DNA of 64,000 nt from assembly GCA_051294905.1 (NCBI GenBank), contig CM119371.1:24988001-25052000 (forward strand), written 5' to 3'. The notes below the pieces were generated by a model. That model worked only from the letters and a program-made list of their open reading frames with translations, was not told where the DNA came from and searched no databases. Made by a program: the position numbers and the translations under genes. Source of the DNA: Botryllus schlosseri. Lineage: Eukaryota. Shown piece by piece: positions 880 through 30,434 of the stretch (its first letter is position 1; the number at the start of each line of letters is the position of its first letter).

Positions 880-1278
880 GGCTAAAATTAATTCCACTTC
901 CGGGCGCATGCCGCGATCTTATCAATAGAAATCCGCTGTCTAACTAATGCCTAATAGTTCAATATTCGATATTGTTGTTTTCGATAAGAGTACATCCAGC
1001 ACTCAAGTTTATCGTTGTTCAAACGAATCGAATAGAATCAGAATTTGTGCCACCCAGAATCTTGTGATGCACCAATATTTGACAATGGCATTGCATGGCC
1101 TACTGCACGTTAATAATGAAAGGAACACTGAAAAATGACTTTGTGCGACAATTTCGGAGTACGAATGTATCCAGTAGATAACAAGTAATATGGATGATGG
1201 GATGATGGCAAATGAGAAAGCGTGTATTCTAATCAGAATCGCCACGAATGGTTTTTGAGTCTGACACCATATAGAGTA

Positions 1279-2120: not shown

Positions 2121-2445
2121 TAGCTTTTGTCGCGACAATTGTTTTCTCATTATATCGCTGTTTAGGCTGTATTGCTGCATTTCCCGATTAATGTCACTGG
2201 CAAAGCCTTGTTAGAGAAACGAATCTGCGCAGAAATGAATTCCAATTTGCAGGCACACACCAACCCACCCTCCAATTTCGCGCTCCGATTACCAAGACTA
2301 TCACGAAGCTAGCTAGCTCGTGAATGGTTTTGTAATCGAATATTGGCGGCGTGGGTGCACATAATTTAGATTTCAGAAAAGGAGAACGTCTATTTGGGCG
2401 CCTGGTCGGGAGAGGAGATCTACGATGGTGCTTCTCAGTACACGC

Positions 2446-4655: not shown

Positions 4656-4709
4656 GTATACTACTTCATGTGGCCACTGCTAGCGAATGGAGTTACCAAG
4701 GCGAAAAAG
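4656..4709 (+). CDS. CA exon: end of signal peptide and start of domain 1 ([17 protein letters not shown])
   Basis: ttttcag acceptor, gttag donor, phase 1/1. Contains the alpha-CA N-terminal WSY motif after a hydrophobic A-x-A segment. Confidence 0.8.
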
Positions 4710-7700
4710 GTTAGTGCTGTTCAACAATTGTGTAGGCAATTCTTGGTATCTGAGGTGATATGACACTGTACCGATAATCACTGTTCCAGGATTCCTCATG
4801 ACAAGGCGATGCAGTCAGAAAGCTTATATGCAGGCATGCGTGTAAACGCACACGGTAGCATCTGATGAATTAGTCATCATGATCAGCTGTAGCAATGCGA
4901 AGCAACGCGTTGTCTAGCGATAGCCCGTCACGGTATAGCGATATGCTTATTCAGCAAAATGATACCGCTGGTATCGTGTGACGTAATACGTCAAAATGTA
5001 TGTTTGGGAACGGGGGAGAGTGTGCTAATCTAGAATCTAGACTAGATGATTGCAGAAGTGATGCATACAATGTGAATCTACATGAAATACTGACGCTTCC
5101 AAACTATATCGCTGGTCACAAATAAACAATATATAGCCATCTGATTACTCACGATGACATAGGCTAATACCAAGCTAATGGTTGCTGATCTGTCATTGCG
5201 AATGCGCCATCAAGGTTATATATTTGAATTAAATATCTAGCAAAGCGTGTGCTTCAGCATGTGCAAATACCGCTACCACACGCTACGACCACTTCAACAG
5301 CCACAAATATTCATTTGCTAACCACCAAAACTTGGGCTACCCTTTAAAATGCGATATTCGTTTCTTGCAATATGCAATATGATTAACATGAAGGTCCCTT
5401 TTGTAGTTTTCAGCATGCGAGCTACTTGAATCTTAAAAGCCGCAGCGATCTATCCTATTTGTATTTTTTGATTTGTCAATCCAACCCAGATGACTATAGA
5501 CTAGTTCCAACAGAAAGTCGTGCATAATGATAAATATAGGCAGATGAAGGACAAGCAGTTAAGGGTAAAAGCATATACAGCCGGTCTGCACTCGAGTATG
5601 ACCTGTAAGTGACCCAATATACCGCACTGATTTGCACATCCGAGAGAGAGAGAGAGAGTCCTTATTTTCATCCAGTCAAAATACATAAAAAAAACAGACC
5701 GTAATGATGTTGGTACGGATATATATGCATGCACAATTGCACACTGTGCATTGCACAGTATTGTGTATCAGATAGGAATGATCGATACGACCGTGAAAGT
5801 CAACTAGCCGAAATGACAGAAAACAATAATTGCGTAATTTTACTGTCCGACTGAAAAAGTAATGGGTGATAATTTGACGTCATTCCCGTAATCATTATAC
5901 CATCAGCTTTCTAGTAGCGATCGATTAACTGAATAATGTTAATGCCCACAACGACACGTCATACGCACAATTACTATCTTTTATGTTACAAAGTGATGAG
6001 AATTTTATCCTAAGGTGTGTATTGATAGCGAAAACCCCATTATAAGAATGTGGATCGGAACCCGTCGGGATGACTATCCAACCGTGCGGAATTCTTCCGT
6101 TCTGCTCAATTCCAATTAAAAGTAGCAATTTCACGTCACACAGCAAGTTAAAAAACTTAGAATGAAAGCATAGAAAATGAAATTTACGAGAAGTATTCGA
6201 ATAAGTAGGCCTATATCGAAAAATTCTATTTAGTTGAGTGGCCGCTTAATTTAAGCAGTCGATGGGGCTGGCGAGTTTCTAAATTAAACTCAGTATCTTT
6301 GCATCTAACATCAAATAATTATTGACACCAAGCATTCGTAGGTTATCTAAGAGTAAGTATAAATTGCCGTGATACATGGGCAATATTCCAGGCGGTTCGC
6401 ATCACAATTACACTAATACAAGGAATGCAAACTTTTCCCTGTTCTGCTCTGTATTTTTATAAACTCAAACTGCCCATGATAACTAAATTTTCGTAAGTTA
6501 TCGTAACTTTAGTTATCGTAGGCAACCGTCTATGTCAATAAACTGTTCAAGTGGGCAAATCTACTTGACTACTCCAACTAATTTGTCACGTACTTCGTCA
6601 CTGAATAACCTCCGTGCGCATAGTGTCATAGTGTGAAATCTTCCCTATACTTCCTCACTTGATTGTTGATTTCAATTGATACGTACCTCTCCTCGGCGCG
6701 ATAATGACAGTTATGGAGATTTGGTCTGACTTTAATAATAGCGGTAAAACACTGCAAATTTGAAGCTATATTGGTCCGATTCCCTAACTGAGCGGGTTGT
6801 TGTGTGCGATCATATTTCTCCTTAATATAACATAGGATCACAAGAGATATGCCGCTTGTCGTTTGCGACACAATGGTATTCCGGTGTATCTTCATACGAG
6901 CCGGTGTGCATGCGGCAGAAGTCTAGTTACTGCGTTCTAATGATTATATTGTCACCATTTGCATACGGTAAACCCATCCAAGGAACGCCCATTGTCAATC
7001 CAATATATTTCATTTGCAACATTATAATCAAGGGGGAAAGACACTATTATTTATTCAGAGAGCAAATAGATATGAGTCGGGCAGATCAACGACACCGAAC
7101 ACATGGTATGACGAAGCGAGGCATATTGACTAACAGTGATTTATACTGATTACGATTCCATTACGAATCAGAGTCGCAGGATACCAACGTAAATGTAATA
7201 ACAGAACACTGATCTAGTCTGCATACCCTTCGAAATTCGCAAAATCATCCCAAATCCGAACCTTTTCAGTTGCCCTACATAATGGATAAAAAAAAACAGT
7301 GCCAGATAGTATTTTACGTAATTTGCTTCAATATATTGCTATGAGGTAGGATTATCAGCAAAACCACTTCGAAGAGCCAAACATCGACGAAAGCAGGAGA
7401 ATGGCGATTATCCTCGTAATTGAAAAATATTTCGTAATTATGCACTCATTTGCCTGTTATAGTTTTCTAATCGATTACAGGCAGTACTCTGCAATTTTAG
7501 AGATATGCAATGTTATTCTCTGTGTAAAAGAGTACCAACATGAGATAGGTTGAGAACCATTGCTCTCGTAGAAAAGGGGTAGCGCTATCCTGTATCTGAA
7601 AGGTTTGACGCTTTGAAATTCAGGACCATCAGAATGGAAGAATGACTACCCCAAGTGCGGGGGAGAATATCAATCGCCCGTCAACATCGAAACGACCAAA

Positions 7701-10700
7701 GTCTTGATCGATCCATCGCTGCACCTGTTCAAGATGGCGGGTTACGACCAGAAACTGTCAGGCGGGACTCTCGTCAATAACGGCCATTCGCGTAAGTGAA
7801 CTTCATGGATTATGATAATAGTGATTCCAGAAATGCGATTTATCCTGAGACACCTTATGCGATATGTAAAACGAATGCGTAAGTCCTTTTAAGCACGTAG
7901 CTAATACACGAACATACCTAATCGCATCATATATATCGGTAAAGAGACTTGTGTGGGAATGATGCGAACCCTTAATGTTTCTTGTTCGAGCATTCATAAA
8001 ACGCTCGCTGTTGGCGGGCAGACGAACGCGAACATATGACGACGTATGGTGATGTCACAATGCTTATTAAAAACTAATCATTAGTGTCTTAGTGCCTGCG
8101 TCCCTATCTTCTAAATGTACTACCTAGGTCGTTATTCAGAACATGTGTCCGCGGTCACAAGAGCATCGGACACAAAGGGATGCGACACTTCAACGTGCGG
8201 GTTAAACTTCGGGTCACCGTTGCGTTACGTTGAGACTCGGGCTGGAGTTTAGGTTAGGTTAACGTCTACTTACGGGTTACTTTTGGAGTTCGGGGATTAT
8301 AAAATCGCATACTTAGGTGTCGCATTCTAAACTGTTTTCTTCTATTGCGTCGCATGTCCATTGGACATGGGACAAATGTCGGGACACCGAGACTGCGATT
8401 GTGGATATAAGAACGATTTTTCACTCATGAATATGTTACTTTAGCGGAATATGTTGTTGGCCAAGTTGTCTCAAGACACCGGGTTAGTTTTCTGTACACA
8501 ATCCTTATCTGCACCAAGTAGCGTCAAGCTGCTCTGAGAATATCTTAACTCGAGAATAATTTGTAACCGAGGAACCGAAAAATTCTATTGTTAGCTTTTT
8601 CATCAGTAATGAGCAATTTTTCCACTTCACTTGAATAAAACGTCATAATCTCATCCTAACCCGTTTTGGAGCCAAGCATTTAAGGGTGGCGGAGGCGTTT
8701 CATTATATTATTCACAACCGTAATAGTGTCATATCTCATGCAAAATTAGCTTCAAAGCAAAATTAGTATCAATAACACTTTCGACGTATATGCTACATAG
8801 TTTTATTTCGATACGGAGATCACGTTACTTTCTTGTCGTTACCGCCATAAAAAAGAAAGAAAGTGCTATTTAAGTACTTTCGATAGAATAGGAAGTTGCA
8901 ATTCAAGGCATTACGATCAAATGCACAGTGTTTTTTTTCGCGAAACAGAAACCACTGAAATGTCGCATTTGCACGGCATCAGGAACGTGAACAGAACGTT
9001 CGCAGCATCCATAAACTTGAACATGGATATGTGGGGGTTTTATTGTATGTGATATTGGATATAAGACAAAATTAGATACATATATTCGTTAGTCTTCAAG
9101 GCCAATTCCACCTATAGGCGATAGCGAACTAGTTGTGTTTTATAGAAACGTGCCTGTAACCGATATCGCCTCCGTGCGTAATCTCATTGCGTAAACATTA
9201 TTTGACGGTATCCAGCGGAATGCGCCGGATGGAGATTATCCAGATTATATATTATAATAAAAAGATTTTCGCTAGCTTGAATTGTAATGTCGAAATTTGA
9301 AAACTGACAAGCAATCCGTTTATTCACAAATGACTCTAAGCAGAAATAAGTTCGGAGATTATCCCAAACCCATATAGGTTGATTTCGTCACGGGTTTGAA
9401 AAAACCCTGCATGATTTTACTGGCCGAGTCTGTTACACGATTATATTGAAATTGCCTCTGTTTTGCAGTGCAATTGAACTTCCCGGCAGACAAGACATTC
9501 CGTTTATCTGGCGGCGGATTCGGCAATAGCACATACCGCGCATTGCAGTTGCATTTTCACTGGTCAGCGCCAGGATCGTATGACGGCTCCGAACATACTA
9601 TCGACGGTCGACATTCTGCAGTCGAGGTAGCTTATACAGTGGTTTTCACTGCAATATGGGTGTGTCACGGGTGAGACTATAATCTCATGGTACACTTATA
9701 CCATCAGAAACAAATCCAGAGTTCATTCAGCATCATATTCAGATATAAGTCCATATCCGGGAATGGCATGTTTTTTTGCCATTTGTACCAAGTCCATATT
9801 TAAATCCGCCTTCAAATATATTAAATTTAATCCCCGTGGTTATCCTGTTGAAATGTTGAAATCCGATTTTATTTTAAGATGAAAATCGACAGTCGTAATC
9901 CCTGCTAATCCCAATATCAATTCAATACGAGATATTGCACTTTATGTCGTATCTATACACACGATACTGATTATATTTTGGGCTGAGTGCTAGGACAAAA
10001 TTACTCAAATCCGAGTGTGTATGCAATGGTAATAATACTGGGTCGAGCACATTGAGAAAACATTTGTCGAGAAACTAAAATAGACGGAATATACAAACGT
10101 CACACTTAACGATATCTTATCAACGAAAATGTAGTTTATATACATTCTTCAGGCCGTGGGCACCTCTCGACCTCAGTTAATATCAATTTAACATTCGAAA
10201 TATGTTACGGATCGAACCGGAATATCGGCACACAGAGCCGTGAAATAGTCATAGTCAAGAAATGCAACAATATTTCTGATGTGTAGCTGGCAATATCTCG
10301 TCGTGGAGGCAAGAACATCATATTTTGAACTTGAAGGACATTATATGTGTTGTGACGTAAATTTATGGGATACGCGAATACTTGACTCGATTCGAAGCTT
10401 AATACTTGACTGATGGGCATCACACCAACCGAGTAATAGATTTAACCCGCACCTGGGTCTATGCGAGTGGTTCCCAACGTTGATAAGGGTGCGGAGATAT
10501 CAAAAGGAGCGACTAGGGGTGGCGATAAGAGCGCAAATGTTAGAACGTCCTGTGATATATATTAAATTAACATGCTAAAAAATGCTGGGGATGACGGCTT
10601 ATTCTGCATACAAAACGAATAATAAGGTTAACTCAACGGAAAGTAAACGCAGAAACCGCTTTTTCGAGCACCTACCACCTCGTAAAAATCGCATCTTCTT

Positions 10701-13700
10701 TAATAAATTCATCAATTATTAGAGTTGGGCGAATAAATTTCCCGGTCATATGCCCTCTTCTTCGGATCCATAAATACGGCAGTGGGCGGAAATTTGTATC
10801 GAGATTGATAAGGGAGAGTTGATAGAAAAAGTTGGGAAACACTGGTCCGTGCAATACAAATCCCGGATGGCACCCGATTCCTAATAGGCATTCGATTGCC
10901 GAATTCAATGATTCGAAGCGTATCAGCAGGAACTATCACACTCCTAGCACATTGCATTATCTCGCTGGGCATACTGGTTTTTATTGCAGGACTGGGGTGG
11001 GTTATTTACGTGCTAAAACATCATTTAGAATTTTACGCCGTGCATTATGCAAGCATAAAATACACAGATATGTGCAGAGAGGGTGAACATAGTCAACGTT
11101 TGCCCTCAGTATACAAGTAGATGCACTGCTGTAAATTCCCACTAAATTAAGAGTACAAGGAGCGATTTCAAAGACATGCCGAAACTACTTCAGGTACAAT
11201 TTGAAAACGAAAGTATTAAAAGTACAAAACTAAGTTCTGTCAAAATGCACAACACAAACCAGCAAATCTTCGAAATATATTCAGTTACCGTGATACATAG
11301 GCTATATCGAGCACTAGTAATTATAGTTCGGCCTGCAAAAGTTGTCCAAGATATTATCAATCTACCTTTCCGATTACAAAATAAAAGGTTTAGAAAGTAA
11401 TCAGCTTTGCTTAAATAAATGTGAAGTGGAAGTATTGTAAAAGTGTAACTACTATGCAGTCCGAGCAGGCAAAACCAACTTTATCACACCAATGAACTTT
11501 TCCAGTAGAGGCCATCTCTATTTATGTTCAAGAACTTCTCCAATACTCGATATTTTGTATGAGGCTACCACTGGCATAGTTAAAATATTTGATAATAAAG
11601 ATTTGTTACAATTAGAATGTATAGCCAATATAGCTGTGACTTGATCCATTCGCGTAACAGCGAATCATGAACTGCACATGTTCAAAGAGCGTTATCGGGC
11701 ATTATTCTTCGATTACTCATGTGGTTATTACTTCATGTAAAGATGTGGTCCGGGGATTTAGGACATTTTAAAAGGCAATTGTCGGCGAAGTAAGATTACC
11801 CTTTTTACATCACGATTTATGGCGCATTAGTAAGGACCTATGCACATATCTACAGATTAGCCAACGGATTATAGTTTACCCATATCTTTTACGATGTACT
11901 CGCAGATGCACATTGTACACATTAAAGATCCGTATACGTCCACGGATCAAGTAAAAGACATGCGCGATGGACTTGCAGTGCTGAGCGTCATGATCGACGT
12001 CGGCCAAACAAACCTGGCCGTAAAGAAACTACTGGATGCCACACAGAATCTGACATACGCTGGTAAGACAGTTAACATGAAAAGACCTTGCCGATTAATT
12101 GTATAGCCGGTACGTTGTAGACCGGTGCCTGTATTATCCCATTGGCCAGGTCATCGACGCGTGACACCACACCCTCTAGCTGACCTCATTACTGATAGCG
12201 CTGTATCAACACAAGCAGATTACGATTAATCTGATTGTGCAATGTGCATCGCTGCTGAGAGAGCCAGCGCATTCAATCGTTTACCTTGCGTTGCAATAAC
12301 TCATTCGTTAGCGGACGATGGAAGTTTTGGGCCAAGTGCTGCATGCGATGAGTAGAATTCCTCCGCCTGTTGTTTTAGGGTGTTTCGCAAATAGACATAC
12401 TGGCGATAGAGCGTATCCGACTGTAAAAGGATTAAGCTCGCGCTTTTAATGAAGCGAAACTATCGGATTTTGTCATCTGCAAACGTAGGTTTGTGTGTGT
12501 TGGCTGAAATGTAATTAACCTGGTATGCATGGTCAAATCCCGTTCTTTATTCGGCAAGAATCTATGATTGATATTACAGTGCACTTCAAGTACATTCTTA
12601 TTTATCACACAAAGCGTTTCGAATTATCGCTAATCAGGGGTTTATCTGCGCAAGACTATTACAGCTTACTGTGCTAACTGTATTTACAGAAATAATATGA
12701 TGAGATCAGTGAAACCGAACTCAAATATAAATTTCAAATCACTCCCTTTGTTTCTATTGGGATGCTTCATTCGAAAGACCATGCATATAAATATCATGGA
12801 TCATACGGGATGCACTGTAAAAACACCATTGTTCACAAACGTGGGAGTTGTTAAATTTATATACATTGAATTCAGCTGTAACCGATAATAGTATCTCGTA
12901 ACTCGCGGTCACGACGATATATATTGTCATAATTGTATGTTCGCATTGTTTTACTCGGTAAATACCAGTGCCCCTGCGTATGCGTTGTGAGTGATACACG
13001 AGAGTTAGCTGTAAACTCGGTATTAAAATTCGATTCAGTATTGGTAAATCCCTATTCGGGTTTCCATAACGTAGTACTGTAGCAGTGTAGTGCAAAGCAT
13101 TCAAATCATTCTATCATTATATTCGACGTTAAGTCTTGCTGTATATTTGTGCTGCTGACATCGGAGATGAGATTTCCCAAACTGCCTATTTACCACTATA
13201 GATTCACGTAAAACACACCAGTAACTGTAAAAACCTATTTATGAAGTTGATTGTGAAAAATAAGTGTTCATACGTACAGATTCTACAACTACTCTCGCTG
13301 ACGGACCGTCACTCATCAGTCTGCTACCCAATTCGGAGACATTTTACAGATATATGGGTTCATTAACGACTCCTCCGTGTTACGAGACAGTTTTATGGAC
13401 AATTCTTGAACAGCCAATATCTATATCCCAGGCTCAGGTAATCCATAGGCTTACAGTGCATAATATATATTTGTAAGGGTGTGTGATCCGAAGGGATCAA
13501 AGTTGTCATCGTTGCTACTTGAACGTAGAACCAACGTCTGGAATTCCCACTATGTCACAAATAGTGGTATTCCAAGTCATCTCAAGACTACGTCAAGTGG
13601 AAGTAGAAAGTAGAATGTAGGACAAGTGTTCAAATAAGCGGTTTCTAAAAATGGATTTAGTCGAAGCAGGCTATACTTTTATCATTTAATCCAGTGGCTC

Positions 13701-16700
13701 CCAACCTATTAGTTGTCACGGACCGCTTTATACTAATTAATAATTCTGCGCGCCCCTGCATCAATTTTGCCTGAATCTCAAATAAGGTATATTTGACTAT
13801 CGTAATAATCATGCTATTCAACTAAACCATTGGTTCTCAAACTGGGGGTCTCGCCCCCCTTGGGGCGCGAGAAATTGGCAAAGTCTGTATGAATTCTGAC
13901 TAAACATCTGTTTTACAATCATTCTGAGGAGACGATTGTTGAAGAGAAACTTATTTCGTGTTCAAGAAAGCTCGCCATTTTCAAATTCCAGCAGTCGCGC
14001 TCAATGGAGTGTAAGCTGATTTCAACTTCATTTGAACAAATTTTTCGTATGCTTTGAAGATTTAGAGCAATTCCTCCGTGTAAGTTTGGGGAAATTTGCG
14101 AAAAAAGATAAATACTTAACTACTGGAATGCGGATTTAAACTTGGCGTAAGACATATTCCATGCGTATACTATTAGATCAGGAATGGGCAACCTGCGGCC
14201 GTAGAAGAAAATTCGTGCGGCCGTCAACACCTCATTCAATTAGTATAAGCTATGGCGGCCGTCGACATGCAAATGGAAATTACGAATTCATTCCCAATTT
14301 TTTGAGAGATTTTTATTAATATCGAAATTTTCTTCACGCTCCGCGCAATTCAGCATAGATTCATTTATCGATTTTATTATAGTAGCACCCTTCTCAATCT
14401 GAGCCGGAATTGGAATCGTGTGCTAGTCGCATAAAAAACAATTGTTTTTGGTAAATTTGGGCGATTTCAATATATTTCCACTACCGGTGCAAGCGACAAT
14501 CATAATGGGGAGTCAGGAAATAACAGCACGCAACAAAGTGACTAATAACAATTGGCCCACCCGAAGATGCATTATAATTTATGACTTGCCCCAAATTTTC
14601 GAAAGCACTCCCTCCATGAACCCTGCCGGTGAATCGGATCACATGGGCTGAGAAAGAATAAATATTTAATAGTAATGTGTGATACTGCTACTATTAATTA
14701 AGGAATTGATGCGCGAATCTGAAAAATTTTCGCGCTATGCGCGACAACATGCTATCCCAACAACCACTCATATATCTTTGCCACTCGCGGTTTCAGTGCA
14801 TACAATAGAATGAAAAGTAGAATAGCCCAGAGTTCACCGAAAATGGATATGAACAGATTAACATGTTTATTTTGCGTCCAGTTAGTTCATTACGACTATA
14901 TGCCCTGGAAGGCCGCCTTAGGCTACATAAGTAATCGAAATGCGGCCGTTATTAGCAAGAAGGTTGCCTACCTCTGTATTAGATGATGTGCTCTTTTTGA
15001 CATGACGATAAGAGCAGAGGGTCAGGGGGCGCAATTTTTTGACCATCGCCAGGGGGGAACATGCCCAAAAAGGTTGAGAACCGCTGAACTATACCGTGCT
15101 GTGTGAAATTGTCGTTCGACCGAACGAAAGTTGTATTCAACGTTTGGCATAGAATTGAATAAGCAATTGACTACAAAAATATAGAAACATCTATTCACAG
15201 CAACAGAATATGGCTAGAGGTCTTCAGCGGTAGTTTGCGCCTCGCACTGTTAGGACGTCAATAAAGGAATATTGTTGCCTTTCCTGAACTAAACAGTATG
15301 CTTTCTATTAAATTATTATTATTAATTTGGTTAAAGGTTGTAGTGGTGCTTATCTCCCTTAAGGGTCTGGTGCACCACGGTCTGAAATTACCTCCTGATA
15401 TAAGTGTGCAATGTAATTCAACCTCGGCTGTATACGAATCAAAACTCAAAGGATTCTACGACATGATAGTACGAATTCAGCCACAGTGGTTAATAGCTTG
15501 GGCTGGACCAAGAGGTTAATTAAATAATAGACAAGGCAATCATGATTTGACTGTAATCGACATGCGTTGTGGTAAATGTAGTAATGTAGTGTGGGGTCAA
15601 TGTCCACACTGTATGCAGCTGCATCAACTTGATGCCTACTCTGGCAAAGCTCATGAGGCTCGGGTGGCGATAAGAAGCCTTGATCAATCCCCCCACTTGA
15701 GAGTGGAATCTGGAGTCGACCTTGGTCGGACTCGAACCTGCGATCCATTGGCGTTGTAACAGAGTAACATACCGATATATCTAGACTCGCCACATTTAAT
15801 GAAATGCGTAGGCTATATATATCGACACTGCAGCTTTGTTTTGATGGTACCTGGTCGAGGTGACAGGCAGGGATTGATAATACTCTGGCCAAATTGGACG
15901 GAATTCACACCGTAAAGTATCTCCTGCTACGATTTGCTGTTGATGTTCTTTTCATTTCCTGGTATTTGAAATCGATTTCCATCCACATAAGTGTCATAGG
16001 CTTTTAGTTTAGACGATTCAATCACATCCGAGTTATAGCACGAACCTTTCCGGGTTTGGGATCCGTAACACAAGGCATACGGAGATTAAACGCATAGAGA
16101 TGTCCTGTAAAATCCTCCGTCACTTATACAGGGATCGGAATATAGAATTGGGTTTGGTCAGGCTCGATCGTGCACCCAATCGACGTGAAATACACGGACC
16201 TATACCCGATTTAAATAAGTGCCAATTCTATTAGTATCTGGAATATTACGTTATAACCACTTGAGGTGGCTTGAAATCATGGGATATTTCGCAGCTGAAA
16301 AGATTCCAACGTTTGAAATCCGTCCACAGTTGCCCGGAAGGAGGGAATTGTTCGTTGCCGGGGAATAGTATGGGAGGAAACTTTAGACCAGTGCAGCCTA
16401 TGGATGGAAGAGTGGCATCGTCGTTTGTAGATTTCAGTAAGTTTGTTCCGATTACCTGATAGGAACAGGAGATTCGTAGTTTAACAGACACGTTTCTCAG
16501 CAGTTATAATTGATACAGCGTCGTCTTTATAGCGGTTAAATGACACATTACCCAAAACATTACAGGTTACAACAAGATCGAAAGTCATGGATGGACGTAT
16601 GATGGCGCACTAACTGGTATGATATCAGATTTTGGTATAGCCTTTCTGGTGGGATATAATTTCCAAATCATTTTCTTGATATACTAGTATGCAATAAGTT

Positions 16701-19700: not shown

Positions 19701-22700
19701 AATAATCAAAGTGGTCCCAATTTCTACATATAGTATGATGTTATTTTTAATTAAGGTCGTTTTGCTGCTGTGAATTTGTAGCCTCAAGTTAATATTTACA
19801 CAGCACAGATGACGGTTGTACGATAATTGACCTAAATTTTATCTAAAACTTGTGGGGGTTCGTGACTGTCCAAAAGGGGTCCGCGATCACAAAAAATGAG
19901 ATCCACTGCTCCTGACAATATTCAAAAGCGCATGAAATATCAGTTTTAAAGTCTTATTCTTGATCGCATCGCATATTGTTAAATAGCATAAGTTTCGACC
20001 GGTATCTCATAACGCAACTTTCAGGTACATCGCGATGGTCAAAGGATTACCCCAACTGCGGTAAAAACTCCCAATCTCCCATTAATATCGATGAGAGCAT
20101 TGCTGCGAAACAGAATGATCCGGAAGATTTGAAATTTTCCGGATATGATGACGCGCTAAGAGGAACAGTCGTCAACAATGGCCACGCTGGTGAGATATTT
20201 AGCAACAAAAGAATCATTTTCTCGTGATGGACTTGGGTTTTATATGTACAAAATTAGTGACGAGATAGCTACCACAAACATTGAGATTGGACAGTAGATA
20301 CACTGGTAATGGTCTGAGCTCGGTTGATCTTCACAAAAGCGACGCTGTAAATGTTTGGATGGGCATTAATGATCAGGACAGATGCCTTTGTGAATGCCGA
20401 TATCTTACAAAAGTTCGATGAACCGCTATCAGAATTGCGTTGACCAGTCAGCTTCGGTGAACACGTTCAAAATTGTATACTTTGTATGCACCAGTGGAAT
20501 GTGGTGGCTTGAAAAATTTATTTGAAATCAAGTGAGTAATTGTCCCATATAAATCCAAAAGGTCTGCGGATTTTGCATGCGGTCTTGCGTTACATTGGAA
20601 AATGACATTTTTAGAATTAATAATCCCCTTCAGCTGGCCGTAACCGCACCAATTGCGTTTTACTGGACGTAACTTATTTTTTAGTGCAATTGAATTTCGA
20701 TCAAAGTTTGAACTATGTCGTCACCGGAGGTGGTACGGGGTCATCATACAAAGCGGTGCAGTTGCATTTTCATTGGGGAGAAGCTTTGGCCGATGGTACT
20801 ATCAATGGAGGCTCGGAACATACTCAAAATGGAAAAAGATACCCCGCAGAGGTAGGTCTACTTATTTTATATTGTCTTATTGTCTTATCTTCAGACCCGT
20901 CCGTAGACGGTGACGAACAAAATCGGTTTTATATAAAATATATTATAACGGAATTCAATGGTTACTCTCAATGTAAAAAGAAAAGTAATTAGTTTGGGAT
21001 GGAAACAAGTTGATCTGTACACCTGGAAGTAGTGTAAAACGTCAACACCTAAGCAATTACATAATTGAAGAGGTAGACAGACTACTTTGGAAAAAGTAGA
21101 AGTACTACGTCACTGACCATCTATCTATGATGATGGTGATCAGGATGACGACGTTTGAATATCACAGCATAGGCATTCTCGGGATCCTCTATAGAGCTTA
21201 ATTATGTTGCTTATTGCTAAAAATATTTACGCGCTAATAAATTTGTAAGAAGATGTACGGAGAAAACCAATATGATTTCATACATCTATACTGAGTGCAT
21301 TCTGAGACAAGGCTGATATTGCTTGAATTTAATAGCCCAGAACAGTGTACATATTGACTATTCTTTAGCCTTCAGATCCTGCCAAATCCCATACATAGCA
21401 TCAACTCGACCTTTGGTATATGCCGACTTTCACTAAAATAAGTTTTTATGTTCGATGATACAATTGTAAAACTCTTGTACGACTACCTCTGTAATTGCGT
21501 TTCCAATAAATCAAAAGAAAGCTTAATTTCGTGGCTTAACGGTCGGAATTCTCCACACCATCTCTATGTGCGAGTAGTTTTCCTACAATCAACGACCATA
21601 GCGATCACGCAGTAAACATCATTTTTATAACACGAATTTCTGGGTCATAAATTAGCCTTTCCAACGTGCTATTTTTGTATTTATTGTTTGAACAATAGAA
21701 CGAACTCACCGAGGGAACTGAATAATATATTGAGAACTTTGTCAGCCTTTTAAAATGATGTACATATTTTGATGGATTGGAATTAAATTTTTCATCTAGT
21801 GTTCGTGGTTAGTCCGGCAATATAGTCACTGTTATGCCTTCCACATTAACAACTACCAAACTAGTTTGTGAAATATTAATTGGTTTTATTCATTGCAAAT
21901 ATTTGTGTATTGAGACTTCGTTATAAACACGCCATGCATATAGGCCACCTCTGTCTTTATCCAACATAAATTCCCAATATTATCTATCGCACCATTTTCT
22001 TCGGATTACAGATGCACATCGTCCACGGCAAAGCATCGCATCTAAACGACTTGTCCACCTATAGAGATACGGCTTCTGACGCGTATTTGGTATTAGGCGT
22101 TTTCGTCGACGTCTACCACGATCCAGAGGGCAAAGATAACGATGCTGGCGCAAACGGCCTGGCACAAAGTCTGATTGATGCCATCTCAAAAGTTAGATAC
22201 GCAGGTATGAAGGCCAATACCATTAACATACCCAAACTTCCTCAAAGGCATGCTCTGAATGTAAACTTACAGACGACATCTGACGACATATTGCTATTTA
22301 CGACTACTACATTTCCGCAAAGTCTAAATAGGTACAATACTTGAGTGAGTAGGTATTCTTCTAATTAAATCTAATACATGATAATATCACATTTTCATAG
22401 TGTATTTCAGAAATATGATGGTTATACACAATGCTATTCACAAAGACTATAGAGACACACTTGTGTTGTTGACTTTCCCTGCATATGTGCGAATTCTCAT
22501 GTATGTAGACTTCTCCGCTCACCCACACATTATTCGTTGCTCCCCTTCGATGGATAAACACGAATTCCGATAGATGTTATTGGAATTTTCAGATCCTTGA
22601 AATGTCTTGTTATATATTAGTATTATTGTTAGTCGTTTATATGAGATATTTTGTAATTATAGTCATTAATCTGAACAGGTCTCGGTACCAGTAAGGTGTG

Positions 22701-25700
22701 ACTCGTGACGATGTGACCGAAAGAAATACATTCTCATCAAATTTCGTAGCAACTCGGTGGTACAATTCTAATGAAGTATTGTATTGGGGCGACCAGGGAC
22801 CCCTAGTCGCACCAAGAATTAGGGCTTCACGCACAGATAGTTCTGGTATTATGGGAGAACAGCTTGGCACAGCGCAACCCAATATCATTTGCGGTTTTAT
22901 CGGTAATAGCTAACTCTGCTAACTGCTTTGACCAAATAGCTCGAACTGCAACGCGAAATCTTCCAACACCGGGTGTGTCAAATTGCCAATCCCTGCTCAA
23001 TATGGGCAATGGAAATTAAGTGATGGCAGACTGACAGTGTGAATTTGCACAGCTTGGAAGTCCCGTTAAGGTTTTTTATAACTTACCGCTATACCGAGCA
23101 CCTATTAAAATTGCAAGCCTCTCTCATTCGCATGTATCGGTAATAGCATATGGATTTAGTGATTCAGAAATGGTAAACTAAGAATTAGCGAATATAACAC
23201 ACTATCACGATAATTACCGTAATATTTATATAAGCGAATATCGTTTTTGGTAGTATAAATATATTGCTGTGTTCCAGACGATACTGCAGAGTTGAACTAT
23301 GGTCAAAGTCTATCGTCCTTCATTCCGAGCGAAAAATCATTTTACCGGTACAATGGATCTCTCACCACACCACCGTGCTCAGAGAGTGTAATATGGACTG
23401 TTTTCAAGGATTCCATCGAAATATCCGTAAATCAGGTGGGAGTAATGTCGATAGTATCGCTTTTTGAGATCGAATGTCGTGCTTGCGTTGATCCCTATAT
23501 ATGGAGAAGCCATTCAAAGTAGCTGTTTGTTCATAGTTTGTGTTGTATAATTCACATTTATATAAGCTATTCTTGCTACAGAATTTAAATATTTTAATGA
23601 ACGAAACGTTAATTATGGTTCACTTATTCACTCTAATGCAGGGGTTCCTAAATTGTAATGACCGCAAACCCATTTCCAGGTTTGTCAGAGGTTGTGTGTC
23701 GTGTGTACCACCATACTGTTGTAAGACGTTGATTAATAGAAATAAAATGGTCTTCACCAAGCTGCGCAATCCCGATTGTAGAACTTAATGTCTGAAATGC
23801 TACGTACTGACTAAAAAGATCATAATATCCAGCTCAACTATGTTTATGCTCTTATATGTCTAAATTAAACTAGAGCCAGTGAGTAGAAAAGGCATTCATT
23901 TTCAATATTACCCTTTCACGGACCCCTAGATCTGGCTCGCGGACCCCAGTTTAGGTAGCAATGTTTTAGCCCTTTGAACTAACTCTCATCATGAGCTATC
24001 GTCAGTAAATGCGAAGGTTGGAATTTGCAATTTACAGATAGAATTGACATTTCTGCGGTAAATGGCATAATACAATAATAATAATTCAATAATAATAGGG
24101 ATATCGAGAACAGTAATAAATATTCATTTTAAATCATTTCGTCTCGTGTTATCAGAATATATTGGTATATGACCAGCGTCTGTCTAAAATGAAGAGTAAT
24201 GATGATCTGTTATATCTTTTCAAATATTAGAAAATATATTTGTAGGCTGCTTGTTACGCATTAGTGGGCATTTCAAAACTCTCCGCTCCATTCGCTATTC
24301 GTTTCTCCTGGCATAATTTAATCGATGTGACAGCACACCAGATAATGGTGTAACGATGGCTATTGCGCTATATATTAGATAAGCCAAAGCATCAGTAACA
24401 TTCTTTCCAGGAAATGGTTAACCATACTCTATAATATTTTATGCACAGTTCATGGCCCTGGAAAGATTGTTTTCATTTAAGAATGCCGATGTTACTGAGC
24501 GAAACAGCATCAAGAAGCTGAAGGACCTCGTGCTGGTCGACACCATAATAAATCAGGATGTAAATATTCATTATTTTCATTTTGTAAACAAGTCTCAATG
24601 GTTCATATTCATTTCTTTCAGGCACCAACGAGTTCATCGAATGCCACGAAGGTAAAATTCCGACGGTATCAAACATGATACTGACATAATTGAATTACAT
24701 TTACTCTCCCCACCATTGAAAATTAGATTGGAATAGCGAATGCGCTAAAATGCGTTTGTCTTGATGAATAAGTGATTGAGCGTATCAGGCTGTTTCTGCT
24801 CTACAGTATGCCCATGCCCATAAGTAACCTGCTGTGTTCTGAGACTGAACCCGAAGAGAGGATTGTCACGACGACATTGCCACAACTGTTTTCAATATAG
24901 TTCGAACACATGATATCAGGCATTTATAATTCTATATCTACGATATTAGATGGACATAGCAATTGCTGGTATGTATGGACATTCAACTTTAGCTGTCAGG
25001 AAATTCTACGGGAAGCTTCATGCGTTTCGATTAAAGATTAAACACGCTCCGGCAAGTTATCGACAAGGTAGCGTTATGGTGAAGCGTCCGGCTTGATCGG
25101 TAGGTAGTGGGTTCAATACCCGGTCGGGTCATATCAAAGACCTGATATCAAGTAAGACTGGTATCCATGGCTTCCCCGCTTGGCGATCAGCATTACGGGG
25201 ATAGCATGGAGGGGTGATGCAAGACTTCAAAATCTTTAAAAGGCTATTTCTGCACCTTGATTGTCCAGAGGCATATGCCCAACATTCGCTCATGGTATGC
25301 ATACACACAGATCATATGTATGTATATCATGAGTCGGTGTATATGCCGCAAAAACATCAGGGACAAAAATACATTACGTCATTTCCTTATCGCTGCTTAT
25401 ATTGAATTTAGTTAAAATATTTTAATACAGCTTTTAACAATGAAATCAAAATCATAATCATTGCGCCAGGTTGCAGATGGTACGAGTTCTATTCTACTTG
25501 AAGGCACGGCCAACCATCTTTTGCGAAACAATTACCGACCACTGCAAAGTTTGCATTCGCGACCAGTTACCTTTTACGACTTAACAGACAGCACTGTAAC
25601 AACAGGTAAATATAAGTATCTCAGTTTTACTGATCACTAGTGCCTGCACACCATATACTCAGTACACTATCTATAAGTATAGTTGTTCAAAGTAAAGTAA

Positions 25701-28700
25701 GCGCTGGTGATCAAGCAGAAGTAGAAGTAAACCTGTATATTGAGTGTCAATTAAAAGTAAAGTAGATATTTTCTAGATATGCTAGATCTGCTACACTTGA
25801 AAGTAGGAAATGAAGGTCTTTAAAAGACTTCTGTATGTAGTTTGCAGATGTAGAGTTTGTCGAGAAGTCGTAACTTTGAACAGTTATTCGAGGGTGGTTG
25901 CTTTATACCAAGCGAGATAAATTATGACACCGCAAATAGGTGAACAACAGTAGTGGTTCTCGAAAGCCGGTCTGCGGAAACGCGCCGGTGCCGGTCACTA
26001 GATATATTTAATTTTGTGCCATAATCGTTGAATGCAAGATGTTGGAGACAATTGTCCATAAAATAAGTAAAGCATCAAATTTTAAACCGATTTATAACTT
26101 CTTCGGCATTGTGAGGTAGGATTAGGCCTGGGAACACGTTCGATCTGGCTTGAAGTTACAGCAAAAACGCCATTCAACCGACAACCACAGCGCTGACTCG
26201 CGAAACCGTGCAGTTTGCACGATCATACATTTTAAATTCACCCGTTTGGTGGATTTGGTTTCATTTTTGAGAGTCTACCGGTAGGCCCAGTGTTGTTTGA
26301 AATCTAACCGGTCCGTGGGCTGAAAAAGGTTGAAAACCACTGGTTTAGAAGATATCAGAGCCGTGCTAGACGTTGGCATCTCACGAAAACAAATATATGC
26401 CAAGAGCCAAATGATTTTAGTACCGTCGATATACCATGAAACAACAGCAACAACATCTTGGTGCAATATTGGAACACACACATATGTATGTCTATCCGGT
26501 TACCGAGGCACCCCGGTTATTACAGTAGTTATGAAAATTTTATTCATAAAGATGGTGCGAGCATATCTCAAAACTACTTGCTACTTTACAATAGTCACCC
26601 CACAAGAGTAATTAGTTTCTCCTAACAAACTGTTATGGAGAAGTAGAAGTTGGGTAGATAATACCTAACCACTTGAATGAGTAGTGGATATATGATGAAA
26701 AACCTACGTGATTACTCCTTACTTCTTAAGGTACGATATTTAAAAACAGCTTGTAAACTACAGATCTGGGTTTGCCCCGCTTTTGCCTTGATGAAGGCTA
26801 ATCTAATTTATAGATGTTCCCGAGCAACAAGGAACACCGATTGTGTTAATTGTGCTGAGCGTCGGTCTTGGGATACTGGTGTTCGTACTCATGGCGTTCG
26901 TTGCGAAAAGGTACTGCTGCGGTGGAAAGAAAAAGGGAGGCACTGCAGAGTATACAGGTGCGATTCATTTTGCAACAGCTGAAATTGTTTACGTTGTGGA
27001 TATCATTAGTCATCTCGTTCAACCGTACTGTTGGATCCACAAATACGATCATTACGTGTGCTTGTTTCAATTTCATACGTAATTTTCTGCCCATATCAAC
27101 CAAGCTCCGTGCTAGATGGTGATTCAGCGGATAATAAATTCACTCAATCGTAACAAGAGCTGGGTAAAGTTCTAAACATTACTACTCAAGTAGAAGTAGA
27201 AGTAACGGCCTTCCTTTCTACTCAATTAAAAGTTGACGTCGGTGTCCCCGGAGCCTGAAAACAACGCAGGTAAGTAGTGTCCAAACGTGGATTTAGTTGA
27301 GGCGTCGCAGTAAATCAGGGTGGGCCTATTTCCAGATTGCAAGATATACCTCCGTGACTAACGCAAAATGACCAATGACACAGAAAATAGACACACTCTT
27401 TGAAAATAGAGCCAGTAGCTGTAATAACGCGGGTTGAACGTAATTTATACTGATGATTAAACGTAGTTCATATGGCAATTTCACTAGTAAATGCGATGAG
27501 AGCTCTAGTCACAAAACTACCTCATACTTATAAAAGTCCACGCTATTAAAAGTAGGTATTGTTACCTAAAATATGTAGTGGTCGAAGTGGAGGTATTTTA
27601 AAACACAAACCCGTGAGTTTGTACTGCATGTCGTCTAAACCTACTTGGGTACCACGATCGTATTGAAATAAACACGAATATTTTCGGCTGACACTCGTCA
27701 GGAGTAATCGTCAACTAGTTGAGAATTGGAAATGACATTGTATATTAAAAAGTTGTATCTCAAAATATGACGTCCCCAGCATGAAATTTGGAATAAGAGA
27801 GCGTTCAATGTACTATTTCAGATGGTACACGAACTCCTTTTGTTGACACATCCGTGGCTGGTGTATTTTGAAATAAGTCGACTTCAAGGCAAAGAAATGA
27901 AAGAGTGAACCGCCTCTTTCCAATACGCGAAATCTTTCGTATTGCTAATTTTTCGCACAGGCGGGATTATACAACATGTGCTTGCCAATGTCTGAATTAA
28001 TGGCCTTTGATTGCTGCCCATCAAGCTTGAGGGGATGAGCCAAGTGTAAAATGTCGAAATTTCATGCTGGCGACGTCATATTTTGAGATACGATTGTTTA
28101 TATACAATGTTCTTTCCCATTTTCTAAGTTGCAGACGATTACCCCTGACGAGTGTCAGCCGAAAATATTCGGTTCATTTCAATATTAATATACTATACTA
28201 TTTAATTGTATATTGAAGTTCTGTACCTCCAAGAAGCTCTACGAATTATTTGAGGAACTTCACCACTGACCTACTTCCGATCATAATCCATTTTGATGAC
28301 TTGATGACTAGACGCGTATGCTGAATACGAACAAGGCATAACGCCCTACGTTCCTATACATATACATGAAGGCATAATTTGGATTATAATGTTGTACTCG
28401 ATTTATACCGCGGTATAAGTCTGAGTGTGGTGATTCGGTACCACTGAGGTAGGTTATGGTTTGGTTTGCCATGGGTGTATATTCACACCCGTATATCGGG
28501 GAGATGGAGTAAGCGGGGGGATATACACAACACACTCTTTACGCTGAGAGTGAAGGATGAACGATAAAAGCAATGAATTTCATCTATTATTATCCAACAA
28601 CGTCGATGTCCGTAACAGCTTGTAGACCCGCGTGTAATGAAAGTTGCATATCAGATATTCACTGAAACTGTTATTTATTTGCAGCCGGTCACCAAGACGG

Positions 28701-29327
28701 AACAGACTTGATATAATTGAAGGAAGATGTCTTTGCACTCTTGGACTAACAATCAGCAGATTTATAATGAATAGGCCGTTCACAGTGTGCTGTATGGACA
28801 TATGTCAGAACATTTCTACCCGAAACCCGGTTTCAATCATTCAATGCAGACAAATCCGTGCCGATATCAATCGAATCGTTCATAGAAGTGCGGGCTCAAA
28901 CTAACTTGAATTTATATTAGGAAAGTTGTTGCTGTTATTTGTATTTGACAAAATAAGGCCATTGATCCATGTGAAATAATACACTACGCAATGGTATAAT
29001 ATAGACATATAGCTGGGCATCGTTATATGTTCAGGCAAGTCGAGTTTATTAATTTTGCTTTCAGCTTTGTATTCCCGAGTAGTCGTGATTATATCAAAAT
29101 GATTGTTAGTAATTTATTCAATAGATAACGAACCATTTCAGATTCTACGACGTTTATACTAATGCCACTATCACTTCTACAACTACAGTATTATAGTTAT
29201 ACCTTTTAATATAAAGCCCGCATTATGTTATCAAATGCATAATGCATAATAAATAACAATGAAATCTTATTATATTTCAATAGTGTCAGCGGACCTGCCT
29301 CGTAAAGAAGCCGGGGTCAGAGTGTAA
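4656..29327 (+). CDS. Tandem two-domain, single-pass membrane alpha-carbonic anhydrase gene (16 visible exons, 5'-incomplete, ~680 aa)
   Basis: join(4656-4709,7624-7791,9469-9626,11906-12062,13280-13437,16295-16436,16566-16616,20025-20189,20685-20851,22012-22204,23278-23435,24449-24559,24622-24651,25470-25605,26814-26957,29284-29327). All introns are GT-AG with compatible phases and there is no internal stop. Two copies each of [34 protein letters not shown] and N(F/Y)RP.Q, then a TM helix. Confidence 0.88.
7624..7791 (+). CDS. CA domain 1 exon ([22 protein letters not shown]...LVNNGHS)
   Basis: QSP.NI and NNGH (His64-equivalent) motifs; cag/gtaagt boundaries; phase 1/1. Confidence 0.95.
9469..9626 (+). 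CDS. CA domain 1 exon (QLHFHW...GSEHTIDG...VE)
   Basis: Equivalents of Zn ligands His94/His96, plus Glu106 and Glu117; ttgcag/gtagc boundaries. Confidence 0.96.
11906..12062 (+). CDS. CA domain 1 exon (MHIVH...[10 protein letters not shown]...)
   Basis: His119-equivalent MHIVH and the DGLAVL motif; cgcag/gtaag boundaries. Confidence 0.95.
13280..13437 (+). CDS. CA domain 1 exon ([27 protein letters not shown]...ISQAQ)
   Basis: GSLTTPPC (Thr199) motif; acag/gtaat boundaries. Confidence 0.96.
13828..15086. mobile_element. hAT (Buster/Charlie-like) MITE hosting a nested element
   Basis: TIRs CATTGGTTCTCAAACT / AGGTTGAGAACCGCTG; TSD aactaaac/aactatac. Confidence 0.7.
14179..14976. mobile_element. 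hAT (Buster/Charlie-like) MITE
   Basis: TIRs CAGGAATGGGCAACCT / AGGTTGCCTACCTCTG; perfect 8-bp TSD TATTAGAT. Confidence 0.85.
15570..15793 (-). mobile_element. tRNA-derived SINE
   Basis: Minus-strand head GTGGCGAGTCTAG...GCAGGTTCGAGTCC (A/B-box-like), a non-tRNA body and a short CATTA-like repeat tail. Confidence 0.55.
16295..16436 (+). CDS. CA domain 1 last exon (LKRFQRL...[21 protein letters not shown])
   Basis: NFRPVQP motif; no stop codon; ends at a gtaagt donor in phase 1. Confidence 0.92.
16566..16616 (+). CDS. Linker / CA domain 2 first exon ([17 protein letters not shown])
   Basis: ttacag/gtatga boundaries, phase 1/1, WTY motif. Joins domain 1 to domain 2 in frame. Confidence 0.85.
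17665..18873 (+). mobile_element. 5'-truncated CR1/L2-clade LINE (reverse transcriptase C-terminal part, ORF 17687-18562)
   Basis: [17 protein letters not shown] and YLGIQID.KLSW motifs; 3' end AATAAA followed by an (ATTG)n tail. Confidence 0.92.
19160..19908. mobile_element. Degenerate hAT-type MITE
   Basis: CAGTGGTTATCAAC...GGTCCGC start and GGTCCGCG...TGAGATCCACTG end; TSD not clear. Confidence 0.5.
20025..20189 (+). CDS. CA domain 2 exon ([18 protein letters not shown]...VVNNGHA)
   Basis: QSPINI and NNGH motifs; ttcag/gtgag boundaries. Confidence 0.95.
20685..20851 (+). CDS. CA domain 2 exon (QLHFHWG...GGSEHT..GKRYPAE)
   Basis: Zn-ligand histidines and SEH motif; ttttag/gtagg boundaries. 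Confidence 0.96.
22012..22204 (+). CDS. CA domain 2 exon (MHIVH...[10 protein letters not shown]...KVRYA)
   Basis: MHIVH motif; tacag/gtatg boundaries. Confidence 0.95.
23278..23435 (+). CDS. CA domain 2 exon ([22 protein letters not shown]...ISVNQ)
   Basis: GSLTTPPC motif; ttccag/gtggg boundaries. Confidence 0.96.
24449..24559 (+). CDS. CA domain 2 exon ([37 protein letters not shown])
   Basis: gcacag/gtaaat boundaries, phase 0/0. FMALERL aligns with LKRFQRL of domain 1. Confidence 0.75.
24622..24651 (+). CDS. 30-nt micro-exon ([10 protein letters not shown])
   Basis: Strong pyrimidine-rich acceptor atttctttcag after a 62-nt intron; AAG|gtaaaa donor; phase 0/0. Confidence 0.6.
25062..25225 (+). 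mobile_element. tRNA-derived SINE with MetaSINE-like core
   Basis: GGTAGCGTTATGG (A box), GGTTCAATACC (B box), then GGTCATATCAAAGAC...GGTA...GCTTCCCCGCTTGGCGATCAGCATTA. Confidence 0.65.
25470..25605 (+). CDS. CA domain 2 C-terminal exon (...[20 protein letters not shown]...)
   Basis: NYRPLQ.L..R.V motif; ccag/gtaaa boundaries. Confidence 0.88.
25951..26342. mobile_element. hAT-type MITE
   Basis: TAGTGGTTCTC...CCGGTCTGCGG start; CCGGTCCGTGG...AAAAAGGTTGAAAACCACTG end. Confidence 0.55.
26814..26957 (+). CDS. CA transmembrane exon ([48 protein letters not shown])
   Basis: ~22-aa hydrophobic helix followed by basic stop-transfer residues; phase 1/1. Confidence 0.85.
27661..28184. mobile_element. 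Long-TIR MITE (~130-bp inverted arms)
   Basis: TATTGAAAT...GAATATTTTCGGCTGACACTCGTCAGG...CCAGCATGAAATTT is mirrored at 28058-28184. Confidence 0.8.
29284..29327 (+). CDS. Probable terminal CA exon ([14 protein letters not shown])
   Basis: tatatttcaatag acceptor, phase-compatible short GC-richer ORF ending in TAA. No homology support. Confidence 0.55.
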
Positions 29328-30434
29328 GCCACTCGCACGTAGTGATGTGATTTTTGACTCGTGTAGAAAACTATCACTATCATTCCGGTTATGATTTGAA
29401 ACCAATTATCTCAACAATTGTAATCAAATTGGTCATCTAGTGTTTTACTAATTCCTTGTTATGAATATCTAATATGCTGTTACCTTTTTGAAACAAAGAT
29501 ATGCTACCGCAGAAGCTCTTACGCTGACGCGAATATGATCAGTGTTTATTCCGGATTGGAGGGGATTTTCCAATAACGCGCGAATGGTATCTTTGTGTTT
29601 TTGCATTGTATGTCACAATGGGAGAGTGGTAACACTGAGGGTGTTCAGAGAAGTTTTGTGTCAATCTACCAGAGATGAACACTCAAGTATGAGCATTGCT
29701 TCAAGAGTAGCAGATGAAGAAGCAACCTCTGACATATGTAAGGATAAATTTTTGGTAATTGTGGCGAGTGGATGGGCTGAATAGTGCTCAGGTAAGCATA
29801 GTTGTAAAAGTCAGATTAGGACGAACCGTTGAATACAATCAGGACGTTCATAGGAATGATAAAATGACATCTATATTGACCGATATATGTACGCTTTGAT
29901 AAAATGTCCAGTTCCTTCGAGACAATCCTTGAGAGAGGATACTGCACTTCCCATACCAATAGATCGATTTTTAATAACGGCCGGCGACGTGTCTAAGTAA
30001 ATTTCAGGTGCCAACTGCCGATCCCTACAACCAGCCTGGGATTGAGATGGAAGTAGAAAAATGTCAGATACCAGCTTCTTGGCCCGGCTCCACGAGGATG
30101 TGTGGCAAACGGGATTGGCGCACGTTCATGTACGAGCTGATGAAACTGATATCCCCCACCTTGTTCAATATTTTTATAGTACCAAATATTCCTCAGAACT
30201 CAGAATTATATCGCGGTCATAAATCCTACTAGATTACCTTCTTACGTGCAGTCGCGCATGCATTATTTGGATTAAAATGTTGTACTCGATTTATACCACA
30301 GTGGAAGTCTAAGGTATGTTCTGGTTTCGTGTGGGATGTATAATTGTGTATTCATAACCGTACATCAGGGGTGGTATACACGGGTGCAAATATACAATAC
30401 ATACTCTATTCGCTAAGAGTGTAGTCTGCGCTAT

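Follow-up and report, generated by a model that had tools for sequence, protein, structure and literature searches.

The window examined here, 64,000 nucleotides of the Botryllus schlosseri assembly GCA_051294905.1 (contig CM119371.1, positions 24,988,001 to 25,052,000 of the forward strand), is eukaryotic sequence with a G+C content of about 40% and many repeats; all coordinates below count from its first letter. It carries a gene that very probably encodes a single type I membrane protein with two complete α-carbonic anhydrase (CA) domains on one chain. The gene has 16 exons on the plus strand (4656-28716), separated by 15 introns that all follow the GT-AG rule; spliced together, these exons give a 673-residue open frame with zero internal stops. 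Along this frame lie, in order, the tail of a signal peptide, α-CA domain 1, α-CA domain 2, a transmembrane (TM) helix and a short tail. Transcript evidence comes from four of the 24 available runs, which were aligned to positions 9430-29400, a stretch that leaves introns 1 and 2 outside; individual runs are designated by X numbers, and ‘joints’ are exon-exon joints. The features of the gene are as follows.

4656..4709, plus strand: exon 1 within the window, phase 1-1; signal-peptide end, followed by the W-x-Y motif at the domain 1 N-terminus; based on sequence, splice sites and alignment with orthologue signal-peptide ends; outside the RNA-covered stretch.
7624..7791, plus strand: domain 1 exon; first Cys of the disulfide pair, QSP, NNGH (His64); PF00194 match, E 1e-14; outside the RNA-covered stretch.
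9469..9626, plus strand: domain 1 exon; QLHFHW (His94, His96) and GSEH (Glu106); Pfam match, contig pieces and the joint to 11906.
11906..12062, plus strand: domain 1 exon; MHIVH (His119) and the hydrophobic wall L141/V143; Pfam match and RNA joints.
13280..13437, plus strand: domain 1 exon, 158 nt; GSLTTPPC (Thr199, second Cys); Pfam match; upstream joint in X3, downstream joint not among the joints listed.
16295..16436, plus strand: final domain 1 exon; NFRP motif; no stop before its phase-1 GT donor; X1 and X3 both join it to 16566.
16566..16616, plus strand: linker exon, 51 nt; short linker and WTY start of domain 2; phase 1-1; both joints in X1 and X3.
20025..20189, plus strand: domain 2 exon; first Cys, QSP, NNGH (His64); RNA joints and Pfam match.
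20685..20851, plus strand: domain 2 exon; QLHFHW, a loop insert and GGSEH; RNA joints and Pfam match.
22012..22204, plus strand: domain 2 exon; MHIVH, Tyr replacing Leu141, an acidic loop insert; RNA joints.
23278..23435, plus strand: domain 2 exon, 158 nt; GSLTTPPC; RNA joints and Pfam match.
24449..24559, plus strand: domain 2 exon, phase 0-0; a helix and the beginning of a long variable loop; RNA joints.
24622..24651, plus strand: mini-exon, 30 nt, phase 0-0; Ser/Thr-rich, within the domain 2 loop; joints in X3 and X13.
25470..25605, plus strand: final domain 2 exon; NYRP motif and the beginning of the stalk; RNA joints and Pfam match.
26814..26957, plus strand: TM exon; hydrophobic helix, then basic residues and two juxtamembrane Cys; sequence and RNA joints.
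28685..28716, plus strand: last coding exon; stop TAA at 28714-28716; joint 26957/28685 in X1, X3 and X13.
28717..29400, plus strand: 3' untranslated region (UTR), extending at least to 29400, the end of the RNA-covered stretch; contains position 29327 and an AATAAA at 29248; contig pieces cover 28828-29400.

The catalytic motifs that a preliminary description of this DNA had named in both domains are all present twice on the plus strand: NNGH begins at 7776 and 20174, QLHFHW at 9546 and 20759, and GSLTTP at 13357 and 23355, with the copies lying in order along the strand, and the exons that bear MHIVH begin at 11906 (domain 1) and 22012 (domain 2). The Pfam check proposed in that description bears it out: ten of 12 exon translations match the CA profile PF00194 (seven above the curated cut-off, three weakly), and together they traverse the profile twice in order, from 3 to 249 and then from 4 to 252. 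An alignment of domain 1 with domain 2 (250 columns, 43% identity) has an E-value of 9e-60, well outside what chance would give. Active-site positions were assigned by motif and carry residue numbers that we take to be those of CA II. By this reckoning His94, His96, Glu106, Glu117, His119, Thr199, Thr200 and Cys203 are present in all 24 domains of the window protein and its 11 orthologues (see below), and His64 is present in each of the 23 domains that cover that position in these 12 proteins. The Cys23-Cys203 pair (model residues 29/212 and 307/504) is invariant or nearly so among the orthologues and would form a disulfide bond in each domain. Taken with five N-glycosylation sequons in the predicted protein and a TM helix at about residues 620-652 (Kyte-Doolittle 19-residue mean up to 3.07), these Cys pairs point to an extracellular or luminal location for both domains. 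The final domain 1 exon (16295-16436) adds a further Cys pair, with a spacing of six residues, in one of the loops of domain 1; none of the 11 orthologues has this pair, which may form a local disulfide.

The preliminary description held that the last exon of domain 1 lacks a stop codon and splices through a 51-nt exon, with a WTY motif and neither Met nor signal peptide, into a second domain. This proves correct: exon 16295-16436 runs free of stops to a phase-1 GT donor, and the linker exon, 16566-16616, has no Met and no signal peptide. The two bridging joints that were to be sought in RNA, 16436/16566 and 16616/20025, each occur in one X1 contig (depth 14.4) and one X3 contig (depth 21.6), from two studies. 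Moreover, four consecutive joints from 16436 to 22012 share the depth of 21.6 in X3, and a 505-nt X3 contig starts 131 letters before 20024, a length that would accommodate the 51-nt exon and a further 80 letters of domain 1. Altogether, 12 of the 13 introns within 9430-29400 are seen among the joints listed. In the raw-read runs X17 and X13, of which about 13 and 6 in 100 reads, respectively, were examined, X13 contributes 2-6 reads per listed joint at six downstream joints.

The two ends of the gene differ in what the window offers. At the 3' end, X1, X3 and X13 all join 26957 to 28685, and contigs continue unspliced across 28828-29400. Because the last exon starts at 28685 and its stop occupies 28714-28716, position 29327, given earlier as the end of the gene, lies in the 3' UTR. 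A 44-nt AG...TAA segment at 29284-29327 was considered as a terminal exon and rejected, since the RNA does not use it. At 28825-28828 in this UTR the X1 and X3 contigs have 36 letters replacing two window bases, an indel allele. At the 5' end only the hydrophobic tail of the signal peptide lies in the window; the N-termini of the orthologues are hydrophobic. An upstream scan found no convincing Met or signal-peptide exon in 1-4655, and the best of a weak set of candidates, 1414-1474, was not accepted on account of its poor signal-peptide pattern; the Met exon either lies further upstream or escaped recognition.

Orthologues of the same design occur in other ascidians. A domain 2 exon used as query retrieved a 733-aa protein of the stolidobranch Styela clava, which in turn retrieved two-domain proteins of Clavelina, Ciona and Phallusia along with seven further entries, six of which are Logan or JGI/IMG contigs of 2.2-3.5 kb. 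These 11 proteins (614-733 aa) have two domains joined by a conserved short linker, and their TM helix is followed by a tail 21-46 residues long; they align end to end with the window protein at 33-51% identity; two Pfam CA stretches were found in all six that were scanned. The Styela protein (XP_077967033.1) is 50% identical to the window protein over nearly its full length, and those of Ciona intestinalis (XP_002120107.3), Phallusia mammillata (CAB3262943.1) and Clavelina lepadiformis (CAK8672208.1) are 38-39% identical, again over nearly the full length.

In databases these orthologues are automated annotations only (‘uncharacterized’, ‘carbonic anhydrase-like’), and the suspicion that annotation might break up the gene was well founded: Ciona intestinalis UniProt F6ZE10 (P0123 in our protein set) contains domain 1 only, and two 330-aa Clavelina RefSeq models end right after the linker exon. 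We count P0123, P0359, P0361 and P0363 as shortened database models of the orthologue. A 619-aa Clavelina isoform lacks the TM helix and would be secreted. We also note a 369-aa Logan protein, P0122, in which a single CA domain precedes a tunicate-type TM helix and tail; this domain joins window domain 1 (support 99/94, about 55% identical), and the protein may derive from a two-domain form by loss of domain 2, or may reflect exon skipping in a relative. No expression data were found for the Ciona orthologue. Two Ciona genes in PMC12258801 were considered as this gene and rejected: the notochord CA KY21.Chr1.1715 is grouped with cytosolic CAs in a table of that paper, and three probe stretches of the blood-cell marker KY21.Chr13.352 mismatch P0007 by eye.

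The exon structure records how the second domain arose. Introns 1-5 and 7-11 interrupt identical codons in identical phases (1, 1, 0, 1, 0), and the CA module is flanked by phase-1 introns; the five repeated positions and the phase-1 boundaries argue for a tandem internal duplication. The 51-nt linker exon would then be a copy of the 54-nt first exon (4656-4709) in which a linker has replaced the signal-peptide part. For the domain-wise phylogeny that had been suggested as a check, we built trees with FastTree (129 domains) and with IQ-TREE (55 of these, LG+G4 without mixture; P0002 and P0018, as near-duplicates, were among the rows omitted). The tunicate D1 and D2 domains form separate clades inside one group: in IQ-TREE the group as a whole has support of 100/99, D1 of 94/89 and D2 of 95/90, and window domain 2 groups with Styela and one further row (100/98), which points to a stolidobranch ascidian as the likely source of the window. 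This split into D1 and D2 clades places the duplication before the divergence of Styela from Ciona, Phallusia and Clavelina. In the same tree teleost double CAs are nested within the CA4 group (99/97), and the domains of lobster two-domain CAs pair with each other. A second tunicate two-domain CA, P0037 of Ciona savignyi, falls outside the clade studied here, its domains pairing with each other at 100/100; either doubling took place independently once more, or the model has fused two tandem genes.

Structure prediction was carried out on two orthologues. AlphaFold2 models reached a mean pLDDT of 85.7 and a pTM of 0.82 for the Styela protein (45-row alignment), and 74.4 and 0.70 for the Ciona protein (11 tunicate-clade rows). 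The best solved relatives are CA XIV and CA XII, both by sequence (E 1e-56 to 1e-52) and by fold; every PDB match extends over one domain only, or about one third of the modelled chain (query-based TM-score 0.33). With each domain making up about 40% of the chain, the pTM values suggest a preferred orientation of the domains relative to each other.

These lines of evidence converge on one gene, one chain, two complete α-CA domains and one anchor, as the preliminary description had put it: the exon frame, the contig joints, the catalytic residues and the orthologues all agree. We regard this overall explanation as very probable, and the architecture itself (signal peptide, tandem α-CA domains, one TM helix, short cytoplasmic tail) as close to certain. 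In all likelihood both domains are catalytically active, judging by the residues that they retain, and a role in acid-base exchange at the cell surface, predicted by analogy, is probable.

Some observations weigh against this reading or against parts of it. Since no Met exon was found, the signal peptide is deduced only from its tail and from the orthologues. The joint 13437/16295 is absent among the joints listed. The bridging joints come only from assembled contigs, of runs whose status as RNA is a guess, and these two joints carry the mark ‘between: not known’; they are not listed for either raw-read run, exon depth in X13 being very low and that in X17 zero in repeat-free bins. The folds were modelled from orthologues and not from the window protein, and the model built on the shallower alignment is the weaker one; the suggested arrangement of the domains is a lead only, from models that carry no inter-domain error map. 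As to ancestry, approximately unbiased (AU) tests, in which the groups were chosen after a first tree had been viewed, reject neither the CA6/9/12/14 group (AU 0.56) nor the bivalve doubles (AU 0.34) as the nearest relatives of the tunicate domains, and the sister relation to CA6/9/12/14, supported at 89 by FastTree, is an open fork in IQ-TREE.

We propose that an early tunicate had a CA12/CA14-like membrane CA gene in which the six exons of the CA module, with phase-1 introns on either side, underwent tandem duplication, and that the first exon of the second copy lost its signal-peptide part to become the linker exon. In each domain of the resulting protein, zinc would be held by His94, His96 and His119; Thr199 and Glu106 would orient the zinc-bound hydroxide, and His64 would shuttle the proton, steps that we transfer from the established zinc-hydroxide cycle of α-CAs. 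Both domains would thus interconvert CO2 with bicarbonate and a proton at the outer face of the cell. Vertebrate CA IX and CA XII form non-covalent dimers; the fusion, by supplying two active sites per anchor that are probably packed together, may be a covalent stand-in for such dimers. The most likely role is at the surface of an epithelium, where the enzyme would feed the transport of bicarbonate and protons and the excretion of CO2, as has been proposed for the gill double CAs of clams and fish. In a bolder version, which we offer tentatively and think rather improbable, the protein would be a rigid, covalent pseudo-dimer, and its active sites would have diverged in their tuning from early tunicates onwards, with domain 2 marked by an aromatic residue at wall position 141 and by long loop inserts. 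It would then be an asymmetric surface enzyme that works, for example, over a wider pH or anion range in the acidic, sulfate-rich compartments that ascidians have, and perhaps the tunicate counterpart of CA IX/XII/XIV that gained two sites by fusion and not by dimerisation.

Four other explanations were weighed. The domain-1-only database models of Ciona and Clavelina, and the lack of raw reads listed across the bridge, would suit a pair of adjacent single-domain CA genes whose fused form is a modelling artefact or a rare read-through; retention of intron 6 (129 nt) would also bring a stop six codons on, such that a domain-1-only product is possible. We nevertheless judge this alternative as largely refuted already and give it hardly any weight: contigs from two studies contain both bridging joints, neither the 51-nt exon nor intron 6 supplies a Met or a signal peptide, and 11 orthologues are single chains with a conserved short linker. 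Greater weight, though still on the unlikely side, goes to a division of labour in which most catalysis falls to domain 1, and domain 2 has been tuned, works more slowly or serves partly as structure (a spacer, a site for partner binding, or one of different inhibitor or anion sensitivity). Domain 2 does diverge faster, mean identity among the orthologues being 39% as against 48% for domain 1; it has long loop inserts, and wall position 141 is Tyr or Phe in 7/12 of its copies (Tyr in the window) as compared with 0/12 in domain 1; and P0122 indicates that a domain of the first type can stand alone on the anchor. Yet the zinc ligands, the gatekeeper pair and His64 are retained in domain 2 of 12/12 proteins, unlike in catalytically dead CA-like domains.

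The remaining two alternatives concern function and descent. Extracellular α-CAs act in the biomineralisation of molluscs and sponges, and the preliminary description had raised calcification as a possible purpose; we consider it very unlikely that delivery of bicarbonate for spicules or concretions is the main job of the ascidian enzyme. Ciona, Phallusia, Styela and Clavelina are not known to have calcareous spicules, and the presence of orthologues in these species therefore disfavours the suggestion. In addition, the published accounts, as far as these were covered, place the double CAs of clams and fish in the gill (PMC5879104, PMC7918649). An ancient duplication shared with bivalve DDCA or teleost CA4C receives some room from AU tests in which a union of tunicate D2 with bivalve D2 (p 0.099), or of all tunicate and bivalve double domains together (0.344), was not rejected. 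It is nonetheless highly improbable: tunicate D1 and D2 are each other's closest relatives, the teleost doubles sit inside the CA4 group, and the union of tunicate D1 with bivalve D1 was rejected (p 1.7e-5), as was that with teleost D1 (3e-62) and that with both (3e-85). The tunicate double thus appears, from these trees, to have arisen early in tunicates and separately from the bivalve and teleost doubles.

Comparison with known enzymes places the protein beside vertebrate CA XIV (PDB: 4lu3, 1rj5), CA XII (1jcz) and CA IX, with which it has in common a predicted signal peptide, the disulfide Cys pair, a full active site, a single TM helix and a short tail; the TM helix and tail that characterise this type are found in the window protein, on RNA-supported exons, and in 11 of 11 orthologues. 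The difference is that the vertebrate enzymes have one catalytic domain and the tunicate protein has two. Tandem α-CA domains on a membrane-attached chain are described for Tridacna tgCA/DDCA and Phreagena MCACO2, in gill epithelia and with both sites predicted to be intact (the sections of PMC5879104 covered). In having two tandem domains with active-site residues on one attached chain, bivalve DDCA resembles the tunicate protein; it differs in its C-terminus, where the chain ends in a hydrophobic stretch, a GPI site is predicted and a tail is nearly absent (PMC5879104, in part; also our motif and hydropathy view of Phreagena P0047 and its kin), whereas the tunicate protein has, by hydropathy only, a true TM helix followed by a tail. 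In lineage, too, the two part domain by domain, with first domains kept apart by the AU test and second domains not. Teleost CA4C, with two consecutive CA domains, is membrane-bound and gill-specific (PMC7918649, in part) and is, like the tunicate protein, a chordate membrane-bound double CA; it belongs to the CA4 group, has GPI-type C-termini and would derive from a separate and younger duplication, the tunicate protein lying outside that group. The α-CA of Dunaliella salina also has two domains by internal duplication, but is algal and has no TM helix, going by the description in PMC5879104, where Tridacna, Phreagena and Dunaliella are the double α-CAs named in the part covered.

The view in the preliminary description that duplicated α-CAs are known only sporadically is too narrow, given the doubles in clams, those of teleost CA4C, which show that vertebrates too have a double form, and the matches to our Styela query: 109 of 120 have at least two CA domains by a crude motif count, a figure that shows spread and not frequency, as a two-domain query and a length filter enrich for doubles and some matches are probably fused gene models. 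In 16 of these 109 a TM helix is followed by at least 15 residues, and 11 of the 16 belong to the tunicate clade. Larger arrays were also seen: P0242, P0243, P0254 and P0259 (1841-3007 aa) have 7-10 matched CA stretches, and P0010, P0013, P0005 and P0009, from snails, Solemya and a prawn, are three-domain CAs. Multi-domain CA arrays may be under-reported, though some of these proteins may be fused gene models. In the open literature, the scope of our search as distinct from subscription journals and unopened supplements, we found no paper on a tunicate two-domain CA; in the portion of PMC13367328 covered, which includes Ciona, the words ‘domains’, ‘tandem’ and ‘fused’ do not occur, and the covered parts of PMC11341064 and PMC12258801 contain no description of a tunicate double CA.

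The ascidian form is accordingly one version, conserved in tunicates, of an architecture that is already known and has evolved repeatedly, and databases contain it as automated models that have not been studied; it is neither new chemistry nor a new kind of system. What it adds is an independent, old and conserved case, such that doubling of membrane-attached α-CA domains appears separately in tunicates, bivalves, teleosts and crustaceans. The benefit of doubling is called enigmatic in the giant-clam paper (PMC5879104, in part). Because Ciona has an orthologue and is routinely used for knock-outs and reporter assays, the domains could be tested one at a time in vivo, and the present gene model marks a gene that is shortened in some database entries.

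A tblastn search found no additional CA gene in the window; several other features were noted. Intron 7, between the linker exon and domain 2, contains a LINE-type reverse-transcriptase fragment (17639-18559, plus strand; Pfam RVT_1, E 3e-8), and a remnant that resembles it lies in the vicinity of 34499-35014 on the minus strand. Intron 13 contains a SINE-like repeat (25070-25390) on which both raw RNA runs reach very high depth, mostly with reads from other copies; a poly(A) loose end lies at 25388. Further downstream there is an inverted duplication at 40200-40530, centred by eye near 40280, and a transposase-like open reading frame of 227 codons at 41370-42050 that has no Pfam match. A separate gene occupies 44975-63615 on the plus strand: it begins with a signal-peptide-like first exon (ATG at 44975), continues in small Cys-rich exons, and has LDL-receptor class A matches at 53257-53349 (above the Pfam cut-off) and 57787-57957 (just below it).

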